24,132 nt of DNA from a virus (Duplodnaviria; Caudoviricetes), in IMG/VR virus record IMGVR_UViG_3300020045_013853, positions 1 to 24,132 of that record. The stretch is one strand, 5' to 3'. The stretch's first letter is position 1. The number at the start of each line of letters is the position of its first letter. Below, piece by piece: positions 6,327-23,831 of this stretch. The notes beneath the pieces are model-generated. The model searched no databases, was not told the origin of the DNA, and was given only the letters and a program-made list of their open reading frames with translations. The position numbers and the translations under genes were made by a program.

Positions 6327-6345
6327 TTTACTTGCCTATTTACAT

Positions 6346-6470
6346 AAAAAAACCGCTAAACCGCTACAGAATGGGGGGCTGGTAGCAGTAAAGCGGTCTA
6401 GGTTTGTTTTGAGCAAACTTTGAAAAGAAGCCCCCCGGCTGTTCAAAATTTACTGTTGATAATTATAGCA
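6346..6470 (-). promoter_or_regulatory. Promoter plus structured attenuator leader
   Basis: TGC-TATAAT at 6470-6462, a hairpin carrying GGGGGGCT, a second hairpin, then a terminator-like stem (6397-6352) with AGCCCCCC in its loop and a U tract. Confidence 0.6.
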
Positions 6471-6832: not shown

Positions 6833-6899
6833 TGTATTTTCTCCATTCATTTTAAAAAAACATTGGTTATACGGGTATAGCACCTCACCTAAAAATACC

Positions 6900-7192
6900 C
6901 TTGTCCCACTTGTACCACTTATTTAGCAAACTTCTTTATAAGATAAAAAAAGCGTTATTTTCTAGTATTAATCATAATTACATTGTATAAAAAAACTACA
7001 ATATACAGATAATAGCCGTTATTTATATTTATATATACATAATATAAATAAGTGGTACAAGTGGGACAAGTGGTACATACTTTTATAATCAATAACTTGG
7101 AACGTACCACTTTTGTCCCACTTTTTTATAAGTGGTACATTTTTTGTCCCACTTGTACCGCTTTGTTCCACTCTGTACCGGTCTTTGTACCG
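6900..7192. repeat. Iteron array / putative replication origin
   Basis: More than ten TGT(A/C)CCACT-like units in both orientations. Perfect 26-bp inverted repeat at 6900-6925 and 7045-7070 flanking a 119-bp AT-rich spacer. Lies directly downstream of the primase-helicase. Confidence 0.75.
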
Positions 7193-10271: not shown

Positions 10272-10304
10272 TGAATGTATTCTCTATAAGTTACTGTGTA
10301 AAAG

Positions 10305-10340
10305 ATTTTACTTGATTTTATAAAATACTTAAAGTAAAAT
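10305..10340. promoter_or_regulatory. Nested palindrome in the divergent promoter region (operator candidate)
   Basis: ATTTTACTT/AAGTAAAAT arms around an inner ATTTTATAAAAT palindrome, between divergent operons. Confidence 0.35.
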
Positions 10341-10527
10341 TTTCAACCAATGGAGCTACAGCAAAGAAAAGCTAGGATTTTGAGAAGTGATGCTGAAAAA
10401 GGCAGGATAAGGGATTTTTAGATTGATAATAGGATTATGCGACATATCGCCAGCCCGACATACTATAAAGTGATAGTTACCAATTGCCTATAGTGGCTAA
10501 CGTTATAATTAAAACAGGACAAACACT

Positions 10528-13212: not shown

Positions 13213-13481
13213 AGCGCGACATAGAAAGATATTTTACAGCACAATGCAAAAAACACGGGCTACTCCAATATAAATTCAGTAGCCCAGCGGTTCGCAGTGT
13301 GCCAGACAGATTGCTGATACATAACGGCATAACGCAGTTTATTGAGTTTAAAGCCACTGGCAAACTACCAACCGAAAAACAATCCGCTGAACATTTTAAA
13401 ATCTATTCAGCGGGGGCTAAAGTTTGGGTCGTGGACTCGCGTGATGGTGTGGATATTTTAATTGGTGAGGTTTTGAAATAA
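13206..13481 (+). CDS. VRR-NUC domain nuclease
   Basis: E..IE, KF.SP....VPDR, FIEFKA, T..Q, V.VVDS motifs. Confidence 0.9.
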   Translation: MLERDIERYFTAQCKKHGLLQYKFSSPAVRSVPDRLLIHNGITQFIEFKATGKLPTEKQSAEHFKIYSAGAKVWVVDSRDGVDILIGEVLK

Positions 13482-13587
13482 TGATATAATTATTTTGTGG
13501 TCTAGGCTTAGCGGCTGAAAATGGCTTGAACACCCATTGACCACATAATCCTTTGTTCAATAACCTACCGTTCAATAGGTCATCAAA
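13482..13587 (+). ncRNA. Structured leader RNA, copy 1 (extended -10 + three-way junction + SD-masking hairpin)
   Basis: TGATATAAT 13482-13490. P1 TGTGGTC/GACCACA, P2 GGC-TTAGCG-GCT, P3 AATGG-CTTGAACAC-CCATT. Loop complements TGTTCAA 13554-13560 and GTTCAA 13570-13575. Confidence 0.75.
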
Positions 13588-14169
13588 ATGCAATTATACA
13601 AGTTAGATTTTCCAAACGGCAAAAGCTATATTGGAATAACATCAAAAACAGCTCAAGAAAGATTTAATCAGCATTGCTGCAAATCTAAAAACAAAAACCC
13701 TTGCCAACTAGCTATCCACAAATACGGCAAAGAAAATATAATTATCAATGTTTTAGCAGAATGTAACGATTGGGAGTTGCTCTGTCTGGCAGAACAAGAA
13801 GCTATTGAAAAATTTAATACATTCAAGCCAAGCGGATATAACCTTACAAAAGGCGGTGAAGGAGTTTTTGGCTTAAAATGGGATGATTTAAGTAATCATA
13901 GAAACTTGCGACCATTTTCAGATGAAACTAGATTGAAGATGTCCATTTCCGCTTCAAATAAAAGTAAAAATCATAGAAACAAAATTTCTCAAGCCAATAA
14001 AATAGCACAATCAACCATCGAGGCAAAGGAAAGACAAAGAAAGATTGCTATTGCACAGCGCAAAAAACAAAGAGAAGCAAAAGAACAGAAAGAAAAAGAA
14101 TTGGCATCCCATAAGGCAACAATCAGAACTAAAAGATTGTTACGCGAAATGGCGGATAGCTTTAAATAA
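13588..14169 (+). CDS. Free-standing GIY-YIG homing endonuclease with NUMOD3-like helical repeats
   Basis: QLY...GKSYIGIT, catalytic R (ERF..H), AI.KYG.EN, E...I, GYNLT.GGEG, FSDETRLKMS. Confidence 0.9.
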   Translation: MQLYKLDFPNGKSYIGITSKTAQERFNQHCCKSKNKNPCQLAIHKYGKENIIINVLAECNDWELLCLAEQEAIEKFNTFKPSGYNLTKGGEGVFGLKWDDLSNHRNLRPFSDETRLKMSISASNKSKNHRNKISQANKIAQSTIEAKERQRKIAIAQRKKQREAKEQKEKELASHKATIRTKRLLREMADSFK

Positions 14170-14174
14170 TTACT

Positions 14175-14219
14175 AAACCCTGCTCTATGGCACTCGTCCT
14201 GTCATATCAGGGTTTTTTT
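14175..14219 (+). terminator. Long interrupted-stem terminator/attenuator upstream of rha
   Basis: AAACCCTG..TATGGCA-CTCGTCC-TGTCATA.CAGGGTTT followed by a T tract. Confidence 0.65.
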
Positions 14220-14233
14220 ATGCGAGAAAGAAA

Positions 14234-14878
14234 ATGTTAGTAGTATTTAATAGTTCAGAAAACACAATGTCCAGTTTAGAGATTGCTGAATTAACAGGCA
14301 AGCCTCATAACGATGTTTTAAAAGACATCCGCCGGATACTTGCAGAAGCAGAAATAGGAGAGGGGAAATTTTCCCACACCTATTTATCATCCCAAAATAA
14401 ACAACTCCCATGTTTTAATCTTCCCCGGCGGGAATGTGATTTAGTTATTGCAGGGTATTCTGTCAAATATCGTCTTGCTATTATTGACCGTTGGCAAGAA
14501 CTAGAAAAGACTAAAAATGCACAATTACCACAAACCTACATTGAGGCATTGCAACAACTTATCATCAAAGAACAGGAAAGAGAAAGATTAGAGATTGAAA
14601 ACAAAAAACTAAACACACTCATAGATAATGAGTTTGGCTATGTCTCCATAATTCGCGCGGCTGCTTATCTTGAAGTAAATGAAAAAGTTTTTAATTGGTC
14701 TGTGTTAAAAACCATGACCAAAGGGTTAGGATTAGAAGTTAAAAAAGTACCAAGTCCACGTTTTGCATATATGAACCTTTACCCAATTAAGGCTTTTCAA
14801 ATGGCTTATCCTGATTATGATTTTTCAGACTTAGAGCCTGAGCATTTAGACGACAAAGCAAAACTTATTTTAAACTAA
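14234..14878 (+). CDS. rha: Rha-family phage regulatory protein / antirepressor
   Basis: TMSSLEIAELTGK.H..VLKDIR, GYS.K.R..IIDRWQELE, LPQTY.EAL..L coiled coil. Confidence 0.9.
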   Translation: MLVVFNSSENTMSSLEIAELTGKPHNDVLKDIRRILAEAEIGEGKFSHTYLSSQNKQLPCFNLPRRECDLVIAGYSVKYRLAIIDRWQELEKTKNAQLPQTYIEALQQLIIKEQERERLEIENKKLNTLIDNEFGYVSIIRAAAYLEVNEKVFNWSVLKTMTKGLGLEVKKVPSPRFAYMNLYPIKAFQMAYPDYDFSDLEPEHLDDKAKLILN

Positions 14879-14884
14879 CCACCC

Positions 14885-14920
14885 AACCCGCCGCGATAGC
14901 ATCAAAGCGGGTTTATTTTT
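14885..14920 (+). terminator. Putative intrinsic terminator
   Basis: AACCCGC...GCGGGTT stem followed by TATTTTT. Confidence 0.5.
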
Positions 14921-14931
14921 GAGATAAAAAA

Positions 14932-15306
14932 ATGTATTTAGAAACTCTTTTTAAAATTATATCAATCTCTGAAAATGTTGCTATTTTAAAATCACTTGAT
15001 AATAAAAACGAAACTATAACAATGCCTATAGGAGATGTTTATTGCATGACTGATTGGGATTATTACCCATTTGCACAAGATAGTTATGACATAAACCCAT
15101 TTAATCCTCTTCCTGATTTTAAAAAAGGAAAATTGCATCCTGCTTTTGATACTGAACATAGAATAAATTCATGGCTAATGTTTTGCCAATTTGAACGAAC
15201 TATTATTAGTGATAGAACAGATAGATGGGAGCAAGTGCGACTAACAGAAAAGCAATTAAATCGGTTTAATAAAAGATATTGGAGCAAGTTAAATGCTAAC
15301 CCTTAA
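14932..15306 (+). CDS. Hypothetical protein (AT-rich)
   Basis: 124 aa ORF that overlaps the helicase start. Confidence 0.6.
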   Translation: MYLETLFKIISISENVAILKSLDNKNETITMPIGDVYCMTDWDYYPFAQDSYDINPFNPLPDFKKGKLHPAFDTEHRINSWLMFCQFERTIISDRTDRWEQVRLTEKQLNRFNKRYWSKLNANP

Positions 15307-16605
15307 AAACCTGCACGGCTACCAAAAGCGGTTTATTCGATTTATTTTAGAGCGCAGAAAGGTTTGCGGATTTATAGACATGGGCATGGGAAAAACTGTA
15401 AGCACACTAACCGCCGTAAACCACCTGCTAACCACTAACAAAATTAAAAAGGTTCTTATTTTAGCCCCGCTTAGAGTGGCTTGGCACACTTGGGACAGCG
15501 AGGCTTTAAATTGGGAACACTTACAGCACTTGCAAATCAGCAAGATTTTAGGAGCTGTAGCAAATCGAGAACACGCGCTTAAATCTGATAAACCGATCCA
15601 CATAATCAACGTTGACAATATTCCGTGGCTAGTCGGTTATCTTGGCAAAAGCGGCTTTGATTACGATTGCCTGGTGATTGACGAACTATCGCAATTTAAA
15701 AACTCATCATCTAAACGCTGGAAAGAATTAAAAAAGACATTGCCAAGGTTTAAATACGTCATAGGATTGACTGGAACGCCCTGCCCTAACTCACTTTTAG
15801 AGCTTTGGAGTCAACTGTTTTTAATTGATAAAGGCGAAAGACTAGGAAAATCTTTTTATCAGTTTAAGCAGCACTATTTTACCCCTGATTACATGGGATA
15901 TAACCACACGATTAAGCCCGGTTCAGAAATTGAGATACAGAACAAAATAAAGGATATTTGCTTAAGCATGTCTGCTGCTGATTATCACCAGTTATTTTTA
16001 ACAATGTTTTAGTTGAGTTGCCACAATCGGCGCGTAAGGCTTACGACAAGCTTAAAAAAGACATGATTGCAGAGATACAAGGCATTCAAGTCAATCCAGC
16101 TAATGCTGCTGTTTTGGTTGGGAAACTACAGCAAATAGCACAAGGTTTCGCCTACTCTGAAACTGAGACTATCCAGATTCACACCGCAAAACTGGACGCG
16201 CTTGAAGAAATAATGAGCGAGGCGGGTAGTAATGCACTGCTGTTTTATAAATTCAAACGAGATGCTGAGGCGATAAAAAAAGCCTTTCCTGAATCTGTGA
16301 ACGTATCAGAACCAGGAGCGATTGAGAATTGGAATAACGGCAAAATCAGGCTGTTAATTGCCCACCCCATGAGTGCTGGACACGGGCTATCACTACAGTA
16401 TGGCGGTAACGTAATTGTATGGTATGGGCTTACTCATTCATGTGAGCTGTATTTACAGGGCAATGCGCGAATTGATAGACAAGGAAAAACCAAAACAACA
16501 ATAATTCATAGAATTATTTGTAAAGATACGGTTGATAGTTCAATAATTGCAGTAGTAGAGCGGCGTGAAAACATACAGACAGCTCTATTGAAATCATTAA
16601 AATAA
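15293..16605 (+). pseudogene. SNF2-family phage helicase split by a frameshift near 15981-16010
   Basis: N-half: HGYQ, DMGMGKT, DELS, LTGTP. C-half: HPMSAGHGLSLQ, Q.NARIDRQG. The -1 frame reads SPVIFNNVLVELPQ straight into the second ORF. Confidence 0.8.
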
Positions 16606-16708
16606 TGATATAATGATTTTGTGGTCTAGGCTTAGCGGCTGAAAATCCCTTCAGTAAGGATTGACCACTTATTCAATACTGCTTATAAACTTAACTGGAG
16701 TTTATCAA
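16606..16708 (+). ncRNA. Structured leader RNA, copy 2
   Basis: 46/47 nt identical to copy 1 over 16600-16646. P1 GTGGTC/GACCAC, P3 AATCC-CTTCAGTAA-GGATT. Loop complements TACTG 16677-16681 and ACTGGAG 16694-16700. Confidence 0.75.
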
Positions 16709-17599
16709 ATGTCAGAACAAATCTATTGTGTTTATAAACACACATCACCAAGCGGTAAAGCCTATATCGGGCAAACTAATAATTATAAACGTAGAGAATC
16801 AGAGCATAGGAATCATTCACGTGTTGAATGCAGAAGCTTTCAGAATGCCATAAAAAAATATGGATGGGATAATTTCAAGCATGAGATTTTAAAAGAAAAT
16901 CTAAATCTTGAAGAAGCTAATTATTGGGAAATTAAGCTAATAAATGATTTAAAAACATTTTCGCCCAATGGATATAATTTAAAAGGTGGAGGAAATGGGG
17001 TTTCTCATTCGCAGGAAACAATACAAAAAATGATAGCTACTAGGTCTAAAAAAGAATACAGGGATGCTCACTCAATACGCCAAAAATTAATTCATAATGA
17101 CCCTGAAAGAAAAGCTTTGGCATCTAAGAAAACTACTGATTATTTTAAAAAAGAAGAAAATAGAAAAGCGCAATCAATTAGACAAAAAGAATGCCAGAAT
17201 AGACCAGAAGTATTAATAAAAAAATCAGAAGCATCTAAAAAAGCATTATCAGACCCTTTAATAAGAAAAAAAATATCAGATGGGGTTAAGTTATCTCGGG
17301 AAAAAGAGGGATATAAAGAAAAAGTTTCAGAAGCTATGAAAAAATCACATGCTAGACCAGAGGTGAGAAAAAGATTATCAGATTCAATAAAAAAAGCACA
17401 ATCTAAAGAAGGCTATAAAGAAAAGATTTCAATAGCTTTAAAATTAGCTTTATCCAATAAAGATGTAAAAGAAAAAATGTCAATTGCAGGAAAAAATAGG
17501 CAAAAAAGGGAAAAACAAGAAAAAATAGATAGAGAAAAGAAAATAGCAATAGACAATAAGTCATTATTATTTAGTTGGATGCAAACAGATTTATTTTAA
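16709..17599 (+). CDS. Free-standing GIY-YIG homing endonuclease with nine 17-aa helical repeats
   Basis: CVY...GKAYIGQT, R...H, AIKKYGWDNF, E..LI, GYNL.GGG, HSQETIQKM. Start moved to the ATG at 16709 (GGAG RBS). Confidence 0.9.
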   Translation: MSEQIYCVYKHTSPSGKAYIGQTNNYKRRESEHRNHSRVECRSFQNAIKKYGWDNFKHEILKENLNLEEANYWEIKLINDLKTFSPNGYNLKGGGNGVSHSQETIQKMIATRSKKEYRDAHSIRQKLIHNDPERKALASKKTTDYFKKEENRKAQSIRQKECQNRPEVLIKKSEASKKALSDPLIRKKISDGVKLSREKEGYKEKVSEAMKKSHARPEVRKRLSDSIKKAQSKEGYKEKISIALKLALSNKDVKEKMSIAGKNRQKREKQEKIDREKKIAIDNKSLLFSWMQTDLF

Positions 17600-17716
17600 T
17601 CTGTAATAATGATAATCCACCGGATTATTGCATCAGATACAGTTGATACCGCGATTATTGACGTTTTAGAAAAAAGACAAACAATACAAAACGCGCTTTT
17701 ATCTGCCCTTAAATAG
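17600..17716 (+). pseudogene. Displaced duplicate 3' end of the SNF2 helicase gene
   Basis: IIHRIIASDTVDTAIIDVLEKRQTIQNALLSALK* versus helicase end IIHRIICKDTVDSSIIAVVERRENIQTALLKSLK*: 22/34 identical, ungapped. Confidence 0.9.
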
Positions 17717-17764
17717 ACTGGATTGATTATAAACTATTAGTTTAGCCTCTCTAAACCAATCAGG

Positions 17765-17810
17765 CGGTATTATTATAATACCGTTTATAAGATAATGAAT
17801 CACGGTCTGA
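17765..17810 (+). promoter_or_regulatory. Palindromic operator and putative promoter
   Basis: Perfect CGGTATTAT-T-ATAATACCG (17765-17783) containing TATAAT, then GATAAT and TCACGGTCTGA. Confidence 0.55.
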
Positions 17811-17852
17811 GAGAGACAGGATAATTAAAATTAAAAAGAAGAGGATAGCATC

Positions 17853-17975
17853 ATGAAAATTATTGATAAAGACGGGAATGAAGTTTTTAGAAGCTTTTCA
17901 GTCTTGGCAGTATGGGAAGAATTTCACGAAAAATATAATGCTTTGGGTTTTAGAGTAGTAAGCCTTAACTGGTAA
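17853..17975 (+). CDS. 40-aa hypothetical protein
   Basis: MKIIDKDGNEVFRSFSVLAVWEEFHEKYNALGFRVVSLNW*, GAGGA RBS. Confidence 0.55.
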   Translation: MKIIDKDGNEVFRSFSVLAVWEEFHEKYNALGFRVVSLNW

Positions 17976-18023
17976 ACCAAGTTCACCCATTCCCGCAGTC
18001 GCAGGGCTTTTAGGATAGCAATC

Positions 18024-18164
18024 ATGACCAGAACCACCACTGTTATTGGCAAAAAAGACGGTTATTTTAACCGCGTAGTTTTGCGTGGTCATTGGCGCAG
18101 TGAGTCTGTAAATCGCAATGCAATAAAAAGGGGTGTTGTTGTTGAAAAAATAACTTGGAATTAA
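18024..18164 (+). CDS. 46-aa hypothetical protein
   Basis: MTRTTTVIGKKDGYFNRVVLRGHW...; initiation region AGGATAGCAATCATG is nearly identical to that of the previous ORF (AGGATAGCATCATG). Confidence 0.5.
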   Translation: MTRTTTVIGKKDGYFNRVVLRGHWRSESVNRNAIKRGVVVEKITWN

Positions 18165-18168
18165 AATC

Positions 18169-18333
18169 ATGACTCGGTATAAAAAACAGGGATACAGAAA
18201 AACCTTTATAAATGATCGCGGCGTTAAATCAAGTCGCCAATTTTTTGTAAAAACTGTTAGCTACAATCAAATGATTACAGAAATTAATGCTGTGATTTGT
18301 AGAATAAAAGCCACTCACGCAACGGCAAAATGA
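18169..18333 (+). CDS. 54-aa basic hypothetical protein
   Basis: MTRYKKQGYRKTFINDRGVKSSRQFF...; ATGA overlap with the next gene. Confidence 0.5.
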   Translation: MTRYKKQGYRKTFINDRGVKSSRQFFVKTVSYNQMITEINAVICRIKATHATAK

Positions 18334-18533
18334 GACCGTTTGAACAATGCAAAAACGCTGGTCTAGATAGCCTTGCAGAACTTGCAAGGTTAAGCGGACA
18401 GCAAAAACAAAAACTAATCCGCTGGCATAAACAACAACCTTTTTTATTTGAATCGGTTTTAATGTTAGCGGTTTTTAAAAAGAATGGGGAAAATGATGAA
18501 CAGGTTGGAAAAGATTCAGGTCGTAACGCTTGA
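18330..18533 (+). CDS. Small HTH DNA-binding protein
   Basis: P.EQCK.AGL.SLAELARLSG.....LI.W.K..P.LF pattern. Confidence 0.7.
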   Translation: MRPFEQCKNAGLDSLAELARLSGQQKQKLIRWHKQQPFLFESVLMLAVFKKNGENDEQVGKDSGRNA

Positions 18534-18597
18534 TATTGAAGCTTTGGTTATTTTTATTATTGCAATCGTAGGTATTGCTTGGCTGGTGATGGAATGA
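18493..18597 (+). CDS. 34-aa membrane peptide
   Basis: MMNRLEKIQVVTLDIEALVIFIIAIVGIAWLVME*, GGGGA RBS, ATGA overlap downstream. Confidence 0.45.
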   Translation: MMNRLEKIQVVTLDIEALVIFIIAIVGIAWLVME

Positions 18598-18971
18598 ACG
18601 ATTGCGTATTTAGAGCTGTAAAAAAAGCGGCCAATGTTTTTGGTGTTGATATTGAATCAACCGTGTTTGACAGATACAACAACGGTCAAGGGATTGATAC
18701 TTTTTTAATGCCCGGCGTGATTGAAGAGGCAATAAACCCGCACGGATTAACAGTTAAAAAAATACTGGTTGAATCTATCGACGGATTTAAAACAATTGCA
18801 GAAATAAAAGAAAACACCAATTTTTTATTAGCAGAAAGAATCTGTTTTGGTGGTGATATTGTCAGTCCTGCGGTTTTGCTGATGAAGGAACAAGATCACG
18901 TCGAGGCATATACCGGATTTGAGGAGTTTGGAGCTGTAAAAATGGCTATTTGTATCGGAGTAAAAAGATGA
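18594..18971 (+). CDS. Possible papain-like (peptidase C39-like) protein
   Basis: Start at ATG 18594. N-terminal NDCVFRA (Cys) and C-terminal strand-turn-DHVEAY (His). Confidence 0.45.
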   Translation: MNDCVFRAVKKAANVFGVDIESTVFDRYNNGQGIDTFLMPGVIEEAINPHGLTVKKILVESIDGFKTIAEIKENTNFLLAERICFGGDIVSPAVLLMKEQDHVEAYTGFEEFGAVKMAICIGVKR

Positions 18972-19129
18972 AAAAACTATTATTTTTAGCTGTAGTTTTG
19001 CGGCTTGTTGGATTCGACGGTGCTGTTAGCTATTTTGAGCAAGCCAGTCTTGAGGCTTGTATTGCCAATGGTCAAACCGCTGTTAATAATGGTTATTACC
19101 GTTCATATTCGTGTGAGCTGGGGGATTAA
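18968..19129 (+). CDS. 53-aa putative exported peptide
   Basis: MKKLLFLAVVL... with two Cys, ATGA overlap. Confidence 0.5.
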   Translation: MKKLLFLAVVLRLVGFDGAVSYFEQASLEACIANGQTAVNNGYYRSYSCELGD

Positions 19130-19306
19130 ATGAAAAAAGATATGCTTTTATTATTTATTGCATTTATCGCAATGGTGTCGGTAATTGTGTTATCAAGAGA
19201 TAATGCTGTTGAAACTCACACAATACCGCAGAACAAAATGAGCGCGTCACAGGCGTTAGGATTGCAAACTTGTTACAACGATAGTGGCGAATGTAAGCCA
19301 ATTTAA
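19130..19306 (+). CDS. 58-aa membrane-anchored peptide
   Basis: MKKDMLLLFIAFIAMVSVIVLS... with C-terminal CYNDSGEC, GGGGA RBS. Confidence 0.5.
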   Translation: MKKDMLLLFIAFIAMVSVIVLSRDNAVETHTIPQNKMSASQALGLQTCYNDSGECKPI

Positions 19307-19373
19307 ATAAACACCACACTGCAAAGCCCGAAACGCTTGCAATGTGGCTAAACCTGAACAGAGGTCTAAAGAT

Positions 19374-19499
19374 ATGATACTCGAAAAAATAACATATTAC
19401 ATAGGATATGTGGCAATGGTCATAATCCTTTTGTCAGTTGGTGATATTTTTAATTTCATTGGCAAATTGCAATCTTTTTTAATTTCGGTGATGAGATGA
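19374..19499 (+). CDS. 41-aa membrane peptide
   Basis: MILEKITYYIGYVAMVIILLSVGDIFNFIGKLQSFLISVMR*, GAGGT RBS. Confidence 0.45.
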   Translation: MILEKITYYIGYVAMVIILLSVGDIFNFIGKLQSFLISVMR

Positions 19500-19645
19500 G
19501 AAATTACATTGCTTTATTCAACGATCACGGCAAACCGCTAAAAGTAGTCATCACGGCAAAAAATATCAATGATGCTTTTGATAAAGCCTTGTTAAAAGAG
19601 ACCCGGCGCAATCATTTAGTTTCTGTCTGTTTGCAACCGGAGTGA
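19496..19645 (+). CDS. 49-aa hypothetical protein
   Basis: MRNYIALFNDHGKPLKVVITAKNINDAFDKA...; ATGA overlap. Confidence 0.5.
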   Translation: MRNYIALFNDHGKPLKVVITAKNINDAFDKALLKETRRNHLVSVCLQPE

Positions 19646-19649
19646 TGCC

Positions 19650-21011
19650 ATGAAAAAAATCGGATTATTTTTAGGTTTAATGATTACCTGTGCCATTGCG
19701 GTTGCTGAAGTGATGTTTAGTTGGTCACTAGCCGCAACACTGCCAGAACGGCTGTTATTGTGTGCGATTACAGCACCAATGGCGTTAATCGGTGGTGTAA
19801 TTATCAGTGTTGGCAATGAGCATATAGTTCATGGCCGGGCGCGTGGTTATTTTATGTTGTCGTTTAGCGTGTTGTTGTTCTTCTATTGTTGGAATAACTT
19901 TTTAGGCTCGTTATCTATGATTGACAACGGCTATGCTGTCAATTCTGATGCTCAAAAAATGGAAGATTTGAAAAGAGAAATAGTACAAAAAAAGGTAGAT
20001 ATTCTGGCAGTTGGTAAGTTTGACGTAAACAAAGCGGCTGCCGATTTAGAGCGAATGGAGAGAGCAAAAGTACAGTGCAAGCTTTCATGGCGTGAAAAGG
20101 CTAAAGACATGAACGGCACTGGCTGCAAAAGTAAAGCCCTGGCTGGAGAAGATGCGATTAAAATGAAAATTGATGCACAACGCGATTATGTTAAATCGTT
20201 AGACGAGGCCAAGGAAACAATCTCTGAATCAACAGAGTCGGGATGGATGAAAACTAACCCCCACTTTCAGCAAGTAGCCAGGATTATTTTTGGAGCGAAA
20301 GAACGTGCCGAAGATGCCCAGGCATGGTTAAGGTTTATCGGTTCGTTTATTGCAATGAGTATTAGCTTTTTGACTGGTTTTTTCTTTGCCGACGAGTACA
20401 AAACAGCAATTAAAAGGCAGTTAAAAGCGGCTGATGCGATAGCAGCACAACAAGGCTATTCACAACCGCCCCGCCCTGACCCGATAACCGCACAAATAAA
20501 ACAAGCGGCTGCTAATCTGGATAATCGTTTAAATGAAATTATTGCAAAAGGTAAAGAGATAACAATGGCTAAACCAAGTGCTGAGGATTATGAATTGGAT
20601 GAAAGGTTTTTGGATAATCGGTCTGAGCCTAGAAAGCCGTTTATGGGTTTTATTGATACGGATAGTTTGCCGAAGGTTGAGAAGAAAGTACAAGATACAA
20701 ACCATCAGATTCAAAAGCCTATTGTAAAAAATACAACCGTTTGTACTCCCAGCGATACAAAAATACAGAATACAAAAACTGTATTAAACGCTGAAAGCCG
20801 CGATTCTGTAGCGTTCGCTTATGATAAGCTGAAAGAAAATGTACTGAATGGGAATTTTTACCAATCATTTAAAAAATGCAATGGCAGAAATGCAATGGCA
20901 TATTTGAGAAGTATTAATACAAAATGCTCACAAAATACAGCTTATGAATTGGTTGATACTTTGAAAAAAGAAAGCATTATTGATGATATTGGCTTAATAA
21001 AAAATACATAA
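19650..21011 (+). CDS. Multi-TM membrane protein with coiled coil, low-complexity linker and probable C-terminal HTH
   Basis: Three N-terminal hydrophobic helices, a coiled coil, a fourth TM (WLRFIGSFIAMSISFLTGFFF), and a helical C-terminal domain. Confidence 0.75.
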   Translation: MKKIGLFLGLMITCAIAVAEVMFSWSLAATLPERLLLCAITAPMALIGGVIISVGNEHIVHGRARGYFMLSFSVLLFFYCWNNFLGSLSMIDNGYAVNSDAQKMEDLKREIVQKKVDILAVGKFDVNKAAADLERMERAKVQCKLSWREKAKDMNGTGCKSKALAGEDAIKMKIDAQRDYVKSLDEAKETISESTESGWMKTNPHFQQVARIIFGAKERAEDAQAWLRFIGSFIAMSISFLTGFFFADEYKTAIKRQLKAADAIAAQQGYSQPPRPDPITAQIKQAAANLDNRLNEIIAKGKEITMAKPSAEDYELDERFLDNRSEPRKPFMGFIDTDSLPKVEKKVQDTNHQIQKPIVKNTTVCTPSDTKIQNTKTVLNAESRDSVAFAYDKLKENVLNGNFYQSFKKCNGRNAMAYLRSINTKCSQNTAYELVDTLKKESIIDDIGLIKNT

Positions 21012-21023
21012 TTTTGTATTTTC

Positions 21024-21133
21024 TGGTATAATGTAGCCTCAAAACGTGAATACTCTTAGCGGGGGAAAAGCAATTATCGGTAATTGCCTGTCACGTTTCC
21101 AACTCATACCGACAATTTCTAACCGAGGAAATT
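21024..21133 (+). ncRNA. Structured leader RNA, copy 3 (diverged)
   Basis: TGGTATAAT 21024-21032. P1 AAACGTGA/TCACGTTT, P2 CTC-TTAGCG-GGG, GAAAA linker, P3 GCAATTA-TCGG-TAATTGC. Loop complements TACCGA 21107-21112 and ACCGA 21122-21126. Confidence 0.7.
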
Positions 21134-21706
21134 ATGAACAAAATTGAACAGGCTATCGCCTTAATTCTAAGCACTTCTTTAAGTGACAATCAAAAACAAC
21201 AAGCTTTATTGCTTGTATGTTCATCAGAACAAAACCAACCAAAACCCCAATTCAAACCCGTAAAAAACCCGCCACAAGATACGTTTGTTTATCTCATTGA
21301 GAACGAACAAGGACATATCAAAATAGGCTTTTCTGGCAATCCTGAAAAGAGATTAAGCCAATTAAAAACCGGTTGCCCCAGTGCTAAATTGCTTCATAAA
21401 TTCATTGGCACTATGCAAGATGAAAAGCACTTGCAATCATTGTTTTCTGGAAAGAATATCGACAAGGAATGGTTTAGATTAAATGGCGGTGATATTGAAG
21501 AGATAAAGGAGTATTTTGAAGTAAAGAAATCAATCAAAAATACTCAGCTTGAACAGCTAATACAATCAATTAATACAAAAGAGTTTTTTAAAAAAGAAAG
21601 CTTTGTTGGTGTTAATTCAATAAAAAGACAGTGCAAAACTGGAACTGGAAAAGCACAAGTTTTAATGACCATGCTTATTGAGCGTGGGGTTAATTTGTCT
21701 AAGTAA
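21134..21706 (+). CDS. T5orf172/MUG113-like GIY-YIG superfamily nuclease with C-terminal HTH-like domain
   Basis: FVYLI.....IKIGFS.NPEKRL.QL.TG.P, E..L...F......EWF.L. Confidence 0.88.
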   Translation: MNKIEQAIALILSTSLSDNQKQQALLLVCSSEQNQPKPQFKPVKNPPQDTFVYLIENEQGHIKIGFSGNPEKRLSQLKTGCPSAKLLHKFIGTMQDEKHLQSLFSGKNIDKEWFRLNGGDIEEIKEYFEVKKSIKNTQLEQLIQSINTKEFFKKESFVGVNSIKRQCKTGTGKAQVLMTMLIERGVNLSK

Positions 21707-22472: not shown

Positions 22473-22801
22473 ACCTACTGGATGAAGTATGCCGTGAATG
22501 TGGAGGCTCAGGCTCTCCAAAATATTTGAGATTATCAGAGCAAATTCCCGATGAGATTCCTGCATCACTTTGCGGTGTTTGCGGCGGTTCTGGAAAGATT
22601 CCGCACAAATCAGAAACTAAAAAAGGGCATGATGAAATGAGTTTATTGGTTGAAGAAGCAAAAGCAGTTGTTAGGTCTGGACAATTGTCATATAAAGCAA
22701 TGGTTTTAATTAACGGATTGATTGCTGAAAATGAGCAATTAAAAGAGCAAATTAAAGAACTCGAAGCGGATAAACCGAATAAGGGGCTAGACGACAAATG
22801 A
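22469..22801 (+). CDS. DnaJ-type CxxCxGxG Zn finger protein with C-terminal coiled coil
   Basis: CRECGGSG and CGVCGGSG. Confidence 0.7.
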   Translation: MNLLDEVCRECGGSGSPKYLRLSEQIPDEIPASLCGVCGGSGKIPHKSETKKGHDEMSLLVEEAKAVVRSGQLSYKAMVLINGLIAENEQLKEQIKELEADKPNKGLDDK

Positions 22802-23301
22802 CAAGCATAGAATGGAATAAATTAGTAATTGAGTTTGGCGAACAGGCTTATAAACAGGTATGTATTCGTGTGCCGCCTAACCGTTTTAGTTTTGAAGATA
22901 ATTTTCAGGTTGCTACCTGTGAAGATTTTGAAGAGATTGAGTCGATGCCTTTAACTGAGCTTTTTAGGCTTGATGTTGAGGCGTATGGTGATAATGCGTT
23001 TTTAATTTATGGATATTGCCATTTTGAAGGTGATGTAATAAATGATTTTTCATTCAATAGTCAAATTTTAGGATTGATAGAATCAGGTTATAGCGATAGA
23101 TTAATCCGCAAACAATCCGCCGCTTTGCCGTTTGATTTAGAAAGAGCAAAAGCGGGGGATATTTTTGAGGTAAAAGGCATTGATAATGCGTGGTTTGTAC
23201 CGTCCGAAAGTGAAGAGTCAAATAGTTTGATTACTATTTTTGAATCTTGCCCTAATCGCAAGGATTTACGCATGAAATACCCACCAAGGATAAGCAAATG
23301 A
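22798..23301 (+). CDS. Hypothetical protein, paralog A
   Basis: Shares four conserved blocks with 23298..23831. Confidence 0.75.
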   Translation: MTSIEWNKLVIEFGEQAYKQVCIRVPPNRFSFEDNFQVATCEDFEEIESMPLTELFRLDVEAYGDNAFLIYGYCHFEGDVINDFSFNSQILGLIESGYSDRLIRKQSAALPFDLERAKAGDIFEVKGIDNAWFVPSESEESNSLITIFESCPNRKDLRMKYPPRISK

Positions 23302-23831
23302 CAAGTAAAGAATGGCAGGATTTAGTAAACGAGTTTGGTGATGATGCTTTTAAACGCATTGGAGTAACGTTCATGGGCGAAGGCATTGGATATTCCAACC
23401 CAGAATGTAATTGTCATGTTGAGTTTTATGGCTCTCCATTAAGAAGTTTACAAGAACTTTTTAAACTTGATGTTGAGACTTATGGTGATAATGCTTATTT
23501 AATGTGGTTATTTGGCATTGATATTGCCGATTATGGAAATAATCCAGAAGCAAACCCTATTATTGAATCTTTTACAGCAGAAAATAATGACGATGCTAGA
23601 GAATCTTTTTTAAAAGCAGATTGTTATAAGCGCAAACAATCCGCAGCTTTGCCGTTTGACATAAATCGCGCACAGAATGGCGATGCTGTACAGGTTTTTA
23701 TTAATGCCGAATTGATTGACATGGATTATAAAAACTTTAGACCTGTAGGGGATTGGGACAATTTCAGCTTTAAATTTCCTGAAGATTTGCGCATGAAATA
23801 CCCGCCAAGGCTTGATAATGAAAACCGCTAA
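23298..23831 (+). CDS. Hypothetical protein, paralog B
   Basis: MTS.EW..LV.EFG, ELF.LDVE.YGDNA.L, RKQSAALPFD..RA and DLRMKYPPR shared with paralog A. Confidence 0.75.
   Translation: MTSKEWQDLVNEFGDDAFKRIGVTFMGEGIGYSNPECNCHVEFYGSPLRSLQELFKLDVETYGDNAYLMWLFGIDIADYGNNPEANPIIESFTAENNDDARESFLKADCYKRKQSAALPFDINRAQNGDAVQVFINAELIDMDYKNFRPVGDWDNFSFKFPEDLRMKYPPRLDNENR

Follow-up and report, generated by a model that had tools for sequence, protein, structure and literature searches.

Three nuclease genes and their leaders

The stretch of DNA analysed here (the window) is the whole of the IMG/VR virus record IMGVR_UViG_3300020045_013853, 24,132 bases long. It is a phage fragment and encodes a primase, an ssDNA-binding protein, a YqaJ exonuclease, a VRR-NUC-like endonuclease, an SNF2 helicase, Rha and KilA-N. 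Three nuclease genes in the window are each preceded by a copy of one RNA leader, a predicted three-way junction of the stems P1, P2 and P3. In each copy, two stretches that lie between P1 and the start codon are complementary to the loop of P3; we call them site A and site B. This match of one loop to two sites is the key feature of the leader, and it was absent from the account given in an initial annotation of the window. The first gene (13588..14169, + strand) encodes a GIY-YIG endonuclease of 193 amino acids (aa) and the second (+ strand) one of 296 aa, counted from the ATG at 16709 (16709..17599); both match PF01541 and phrog_314 and are 38% identical over 92 aa. The third gene (21134..21706, + strand) encodes a T5orf172/MUG113-domain protein of 190 aa that matches PF13455 and PF10544, families that we take to be members of the GIY-YIG clan.

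Copy 1 starts with a predicted extended -10-like element (TGnTATAAT, 13482..13490; this and all following features of the copies are on the + strand), 0 nucleotides (nt) after the stop codon of the VRR-NUC-like gene (13481). Its junction (13496..13545) consists of P1 (13496-13502/13539-13545), UA, P2 (13505-13507/13514-13516), GAAAA (13517-13521) and P3, with the P3 loop at 13525-13533. Site A (13554..13560) matches this loop over 7 base pairs (bp), and site B (13570-13575) matches the same loop over 6 bp and lies 1 nt before a weak Shine-Dalgarno sequence (13577-13580). The -10-like element of copy 2 (16606..16614) follows the helicase stop (16605) at 0 nt and leads to a junction at 16621..16668, in which P3 (16646-16648/16658-16660) holds the loop 16649-16657. 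Here site A (16677..16681) pairs over 5 bp with 16652-16656 as read from the sequence (our script scored a 4-bp core), and site B (16694..16700) pairs over 7 bp, one of them G-U, with 16649-16655 and covers the Shine-Dalgarno sequence GGAG (16697-16700). The extended duplex energies of this copy are -8.0 kcal/mol for site B and -2.5 kcal/mol for site A. In copy 3 the -10-like element (21024..21032) stands 12 nt after the upstream stop (21011) and the junction spans 21042..21098; site A (21107..21112) pairs over 6 bp with 21077-21082, and site B (21122-21126) over 5 bp, overlapping the Shine-Dalgarno sequence GAGG (21125-21128).

The initial annotation had located the three copies correctly, with P1, P2, the UUAGCG loop of P2, GAAAA and P3 as found here. 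Its overall layout of the stems stands, with two corrections: P1 of copy 2 has 6 bp (GUGGUC/GACCAC), and the AA that had been counted as part of P3 in copies 1 and 2 is in relatives an unpaired part of the junction. Copies 1 and 2 are, as it had stated, identical at 46 of 47 nt though their nucleases diverged, and this agreement ends where P3 begins. On the + strand of the window TGnTATAAT occurs three times only, each time before a leader copy; three more occurrences are on the - strand.

That there is no fourth clear copy was borne out by a covariance model (R1), which gave three matches at 43-46 bits and at most 9.4 bits in the rest of the window; R1 was built from 68 sequences including the three window copies, so that these match by construction. 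A candidate before the KilA-N gene (start 10271), at about 10300-10370 on the - strand, was rejected: it does not exceed chance (about 1.6 would be expected in each window) and R1 does not find it. This look-alike, found by a loose descriptor only, is weak and AT-rich and stands at the usual distance from the gene, and its two sites match different parts of the loop.

Covariation of the three-way junction

Single-sequence folding returned the three-way junction for copy 3 only, with core z-scores of -1.4, -2.4 and -1.5 for copies 1 to 3. Since this signal is weak, the fold must rest on covariation in relatives. A first pattern, based on the core that copies 1 and 2 share, found 84 viral loci, 66 of them distinct, and P1 and P3 were present in 65 of these 66. 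In a second pattern P2 was left free; all three P2 positions could nevertheless pair in 84 of 118 distinct viral matches, where about 5% would be expected. P1 and P3 accompanied the paired P2 in 84/84 matches, versus 5/34 when P2 was unpaired. The union of both sets, after 1/66 and 34/118 distinct matches had been dropped, comprises the 139 viral copies used below. In an alignment of 68 rows, two-sided changes occurred at 14 of 14 pairs, and the covariation score was 0.687, versus 0.232 for shuffled and 0.18-0.21 for slid alignments; these figures are not probabilities, because the rows are related and were picked as good examples. The G-U pairs in P1 and P2 favour single-stranded RNA as the form in which the element acts. 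Taken together, the comparisons indicate that the three copies are a real structured, covarying leader.

One loop, two downstream sites

The double match is general among the relatives. Of the 139 viral copies, which have 61 different loops among them, 136 match over 4 bp or more at each site and 86 over 5 bp or more. When loops were placed on the tails of other copies (13,054 cross pairs), only 16.3% reached at least 4 bp and 0.7% at least 5 bp, and loops placed on upstream DNA did so in 28/139 and 1/139 cases, respectively. Among copies from named genomes (see below) the two-site match was found in 64 of 72.

The two sites have characteristic places in the tail. Site A starts at a median of 8 nt after P1, past a linker that is poor in G (5%). 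About 23 nt separate its end from the start codon, and about 8 nt that of site B. In 122 viral copies site B overlapped the Shine-Dalgarno sequence in 95, preceded that sequence by 0-2 nt in 26 and followed it in one; the overlap was found in 54/54 genome copies. Site A overlapped the Shine-Dalgarno sequence in one copy of each set. With the loop alone, the duplex at site A was the stronger one in 81 and that at site B in 35 of 126 viral copies, which changed to 68 versus 57 when the 5' strand of P3 was included. The corresponding numbers for 57 genome copies were 24 (A) versus 26 (B) and 19 (A) versus 35 (B). The calculated pairings at site A and site B thus appear to be of similar strength. 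Copies without a usable start or with a site below 4 bp (13/139 viral, 15/72 genome) were left out of the energy and Shine-Dalgarno analysis.

A predicted promoter and likely mobility of the cassette

A TAnnnT hexamer was found 17-23 nt before the junction, a range that was set after viewing the data, in 121/139 relatives, versus 9/29 chance matches. From this spacing, the RNA would start at about the first base of P1. The extended -10 element that the initial annotation had presented as a rule is not one, as TG accompanies the hexamer in only 23 of these 121 relatives. The three -10-like elements of the window are omitted by our promoter scan because that scan demands a -35 element. In 63/109 copies the upstream reading frame ends at most 30 nt from the junction. 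Reading P1 plus tail as an intrinsic terminator was rejected as inconsistent: at least five T within the 8 nt after P1 were present in 42/139 copies, and a terminator scan called none at the leaders.

Directly behind the gene of GIY-YIG endonuclease 2, an orphan second copy of the last 34 codons of the helicase (17612..17716, + strand) is in frame with its stop, with 22 of 34 residues identical by hand count. It is likely the scar of a cassette insertion. A cassette made of helicase end, promoter, leader and nuclease would have come in by recombination and stranded the old helicase end. Relatives of the helicase (39-51% identity) had an R1 match in 0/21 loci, and one DNA sequencing run, with patchy coverage of the region, showed neither the empty site nor full leaders. 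The earlier proposal of a structured leader that stands behind a promoter-like -10 element and moves as a module is supported by the covariation, the spaced -10 hexamers and the duplicated helicase end.

The helicase gene itself (15293-16605, + strand) lies in two frames, split at 16012/16018, and its halves match consecutive parts of phrog_62; the split may be a real frameshift or an assembly error. Between the gene of GIY-YIG endonuclease 1 and the Rha gene, a terminator-like hairpin (14196-14213, + strand) would close the first cassette.

The leaders and the Rfam motif int-alpA

The initial annotation could not match the leader to an Rfam family. This holds for a scan of the whole window, which returned only chance matches at E up to 1, but not for a focused scan, in which copy 3 matched int-alpA (RF02996) over its full length (model positions 1-71; 21043-21111 in the window) with 33.3 bits and E values of 2.9e-5 and 4.2e-7. 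This is below the gathering cut-off of 35.8 bits, and for copies 1 and 2 the focused scan gave no int-alpA report at E up to 10. Copies 1 and 2 do have the layout P1-UA-P2-GAAAAG-P3-CU-P1' in common with it. Among 20 relatives that share their core with copies 1 and 2, hand-picked from the 84 loci, ten scored above the cut-off, six below it and four were unreported; nine further loci, mostly with other P2 loops, gave six above, two below and one unreported. The leader is therefore not novel as a family: the window copies form a divergent branch of a catalogued motif, linked to it through nearest relatives that pass the cut-off. The UUAGCG loop, previously considered invariant, is a trait of this branch, since copies above the cut-off have other P2 loops.

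Model and window copies share P1, UA, P2, GAAAAG, a pyrimidine-rich P3 loop, CU, P1' and a tail, and the consensus tail of the model (auaAgG) is complementary to its consensus loop (CCuUua), which corresponds to site A. They differ in P2, which has 3 bp and the UUAGCG loop here but 4 bp and a 5-nt loop in the model, and the 71-position model stops before site B and the Shine-Dalgarno sequence. Also, the window leaders adjoin nucleases instead of an integrase or alpA. Presumably the name int-alpA denotes a location between integrase and alpA genes. In the window the genes upstream of the leaders are VRR-NUC-like, helicase and unknown genes and those downstream encode nucleases; AlpA was absent among 119 downstream genes of the viral relatives (a scan that left out the genome set). 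We file the window leaders as a divergent variant of int-alpA, despite the missed formal cut-off.

Rfam types RF02996 as 'Gene; sRNA'. The motif reportedly first came from a survey of 224 motifs. In the literature searched, which left most subscription journals outside its coverage, there was no functional study of int-alpA or of a two-site leader, and the term 'RF02996' returned nothing. The main text of this survey, as far as covered, does not contain 'alpA' (PMC5737381). Elsewhere, int-alpA is listed, without testing, among predicted small RNAs of Shiga toxin-producing Escherichia coli in the passages covered (PMC12370729), and in an excerpt of PMC13612085 the term denotes genes. Candidate RNAs in a partly covered further source may include branches of the motif (PMC10690425). 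The two-site design is apparently unpublished, though the supplement of the original survey may describe a pseudoknot or a second site.

Downstream genes and distribution

The restriction to selfish nucleases that had been proposed does not hold, as at least 37 of the 119 genes downstream of viral copies have a non-nuclease Pfam family. By hand tally of distinct proteins, 52 of the 119 encode nucleases (HNH 45, T5orf172/MUG113 three, GIY-YIG two, endonuclease VII two). The others are DUF1376 proteins (32), antirepressor-type Rha/Bro/ANT proteins (three), AP2- or NUMOD4-only (two), a DUF723-type protein, a helicase, an RNA polymerase alpha C-terminal-like protein and 27 proteins without family, many of them cut short by the locus; 20/139 copies without a distinct protein of at least 40 aa were left out. 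We take DUF1376 to mark phage replication proteins. The text available of PMC5795418 calls this domain unknown.

In named genomes the full fold was present in 72 of 95 pattern matches. The records, many of which are bins, are labelled Beta-, Gamma- and Alphaproteobacteria, Planctomycetota, Nitrospinota, Acidobacteriota and Bacteroidota; the pattern matches in Bacillota all failed the full-fold check. About 950 stretches in IMG/VR bear the pattern of one narrow branch, of which about 71% would be real folds (from 84/118). The two-site match was kept in divergent copies of the leader that differ in the junction strand (GACAAG, GAAAG, GAAC, GAAGAG) or have longer loops (L398, L401, L391, L389, L473, L477 and L479; L391, L389, L473 and L479 were read by eye), and in L401 site B takes in the start codon. 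A prophage of E. coli CEC15 (NZ_CP133657, about 1935880-1935970; L492 2496-2580) has an int-alpA copy of 45.1 bits, above the cut-off and with both sites, that stands before a DUF551 gene between lysis and terminase genes; a related match was found in 52/5426 E. coli genomes. None of 11 model phages (lambda, P4, T1, T5, P22, P1, T4, LUZ24, 933W, T7 and HK97) had a copy by R1 or RF02996, but R1 is narrow and divergent copies might escape it. A weak match in T5 falls within the ltf coding sequence and was not accepted as a leader. A pattern derived from the Rfam consensus gave mostly chance or redundant matches (23 distinct) and was kept out of all counts. In locus L009, a DUF3800-VII RNA (2064-2148, + strand; 50.5 bits, above its own cut-off) lies about 260 nt behind a leader-bearing HNH gene.

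A possible translational switch in cis

We propose that each copy combines a predicted promoter with an int-alpA-type leader that, on balance, probably acts as a translational switch in cis, with the loop on site A as the ON state and on site B as the OFF state. Transcription would start at about the first base of P1. Site A would pair first during transcription, because it emerges first, and the two pairings would be exclusive because they use the same loop bases. With the loop on the nearer site A the ribosome-binding site would be free, and with the loop on site B it would be covered. The fixed UA and GAAAA(G) of the junction would hold the P3 loop in place. Near-equal strengths of both pairings would lead to low or brief output of DNA-acting proteins. 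A mobile gene whose product is needed in small amounts, such as a homing-type nuclease, a DUF1376 protein or an antirepressor, would in this way carry its own self-limiting signal wherever it is inserted.

Several points weigh against this. The pairings are short (4-7 bp), and site B of copy 1 abuts its weak Shine-Dalgarno sequence instead of covering it. The minimum-energy folds of copies 1 and 2 differ from the three-way junction. Start codons were picked partly by Shine-Dalgarno score, the relatives are not independent (shared descent, near-duplicates), and the search pattern fixes the core in both sets. Relatives of nuclease 2 had an R1 leader in 0/40 loci and, with a looser descriptor, a leader in 2/35 distinct upstream regions, with one or two more by eye; since most relatives are without leader, a GIY-YIG nuclease of this type does not need it. 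Lastly, a passive switch alone does not explain the strong conservation of the junction and the P2 loop.

Two targets for one loop, and 61 loops among 139 copies while the core stays fixed, would also be explained by feedback in trans, although we consider this unlikely. The agent would be a short, stable 5' piece of the RNA, cleaved or terminated ahead of site A so that it holds just the junction. On new transcripts its free loop would bind site B, or shift the loop of the mRNA from A to B. Site A would then be the default ON state and the accumulating short RNA the OFF signal, counting copies or giving immunity. The three window loops self-pair better than they cross-pair, and loops differ in 9 of 10 two-copy records (10 of 50 records; two pairs were read by eye), a within-genome comparison that has no power because cross-pairing at 5 bp reaches only 8.1% among unrelated copies. 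There are precedents: in the sections covered, the P4 CI RNA pairs with seqA and seqC, and short IsrK acts on its own mRNA (PMC4825925). However, pairings of 4-7 bp are short for action in trans, and no consistent U-tract follows P1 (the 42/139 copies given above). Furthermore, L285 and L286 of the same contig have one loop in common, and L486 and L487 are near-identical copies in one record.

The conserved junction could instead be the sensor of an input-gated switch, in which UA, the P2 loop and GAAAA bind a small molecule, or else a protein of host or phage, and so tip the P3 loop towards A or B, in the way that an aptamer acts on an expression platform. A multistem junction, a pseudoknot, fixed junction bases and presence in several phyla fit criteria for sophisticated RNAs set out in the text covered (PMC5737381), and the unrelated downstream proteins argue against control by the gene's own product. 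We nevertheless regard such a sensor as unlikely, because the P2 loop and even the junction differ between branches (GAAC, GACAAG, GAAGAG), which is unusual for a metabolite pocket, and the downstream genes have no common metabolic theme.

A role outside translation is highly improbable. The RNA would then be a stabilising or processing structure at the 5' end, which blocks nucleases or cleaves itself, or the element would be a signal at the level of DNA, and the second match would be a by-product. The fold does start right at the predicted transcription start, and its three-way junction with a P3-loop pseudoknot presumably resembles exonuclease-resistant RNAs in topology, but site B is located on the Shine-Dalgarno sequence and changes together with the loop, neither of which a stabiliser needs, no ribozyme family was matched by the three copies at E up to 10, and the G-U pairs in P1 and P2 speak for single-stranded RNA.

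A more general design is an idea that we put forward as tentative and rather doubtful. In it, int-alpA would be a widespread, portable 'one loop, two targets' controller: a leader's own loop would sit on site A, a loop in trans or a junction-binding factor would shut site B, and the variable loop would serve as an address by which each mobile gene, be it for a nuclease, a replication protein or an antirepressor, counts its own transcripts. If true, phages would have a class of translational feedback switch that is so far undescribed.

Other features of the window

Two tandem paralogous genes without a known family (22798-23301 and 23298-23831, + strand) have three common repeat blocks with 72-82% identity. 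Directly behind the primase gene, short direct and inverted repeats (AAGTGGTAC, GTACCACTT, GTGGGACAA) are clustered at 6880-7190 round an AT-rich stretch, and by its sequence this cluster looks like a replication origin. On the - strand, TGnTATAAT at 6470 stands before a GC-rich stretch, behind which come a long imperfect hairpin and a T-run (6330-6470), ahead of a gene for 466 aa (phrog_1376); this may be a structured leader or attenuator of a different sort from the three copies.

Comparison with known systems

We take phage P1 C4 RNA to resemble the window leaders in having two complementary targets. For the P4 CI RNA and Gifsy-1 IsrK, part of PMC4825925 likewise describes phage leader RNAs with two complementary targets before antirepressor or replication genes, as P1 C4 RNA is grouped here. 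The resemblance to C4 and CI noted at first is one of design, but not of family membership, as there was no C4, CI or IsrK match in Rfam at E up to 10 for the three copies and E up to 1 for the window, and no copy of the leader was found in phages P4 or P1 by R1 or RF02996. The arrangement also differs, since the targets of CI flank it on both sides in the sections covered (PMC4825925), whereas both targets are downstream in the window leaders. For self-cleaving ribozymes, no known family's catalytic-core consensus was matched in the whole-window and focused scans.

RNA that masks the ribosome-binding sites of homing endonucleases has a precedent in the passages covered of PMC2988022. In the T4-type hairpins of I-TevI, I-TevII, I-TevIII, segB and Aeh1 mobE, a nuclease gene, either free-standing or in an intron, has its ribosome-binding site hidden by RNA structure, beside a promoter of its own (parts of PMC2988022 and PMC2677866), which is how the window leaders would act. 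However, those are single hairpins, and late transcripts escape them, with the promoter inside or adjoining the hairpin (same part of PMC2988022). In the window leaders the -10 element is upstream of the entire fold and the Shine-Dalgarno sequence is outside P1-P3, so that no single hairpin holds it; the masking element would be a loop pseudoknot, with a second site in competition. Self-limiting expression of free-standing homing endonucleases and the like is, according to the text covered, known only for a few T4-type hairpins (PMC2988022). What is known of the present element is int-alpA as a catalogued orphan motif; what is apparently new is the two-site design. The leader is not confined to nucleases. 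Its two-site anatomy makes this orphan Rfam motif sharply and cheaply testable, for which the E. coli CEC15 prophage copy is directly usable, and synthetic biology would gain a useful part in a 90-nt switch whose loop address can be exchanged.

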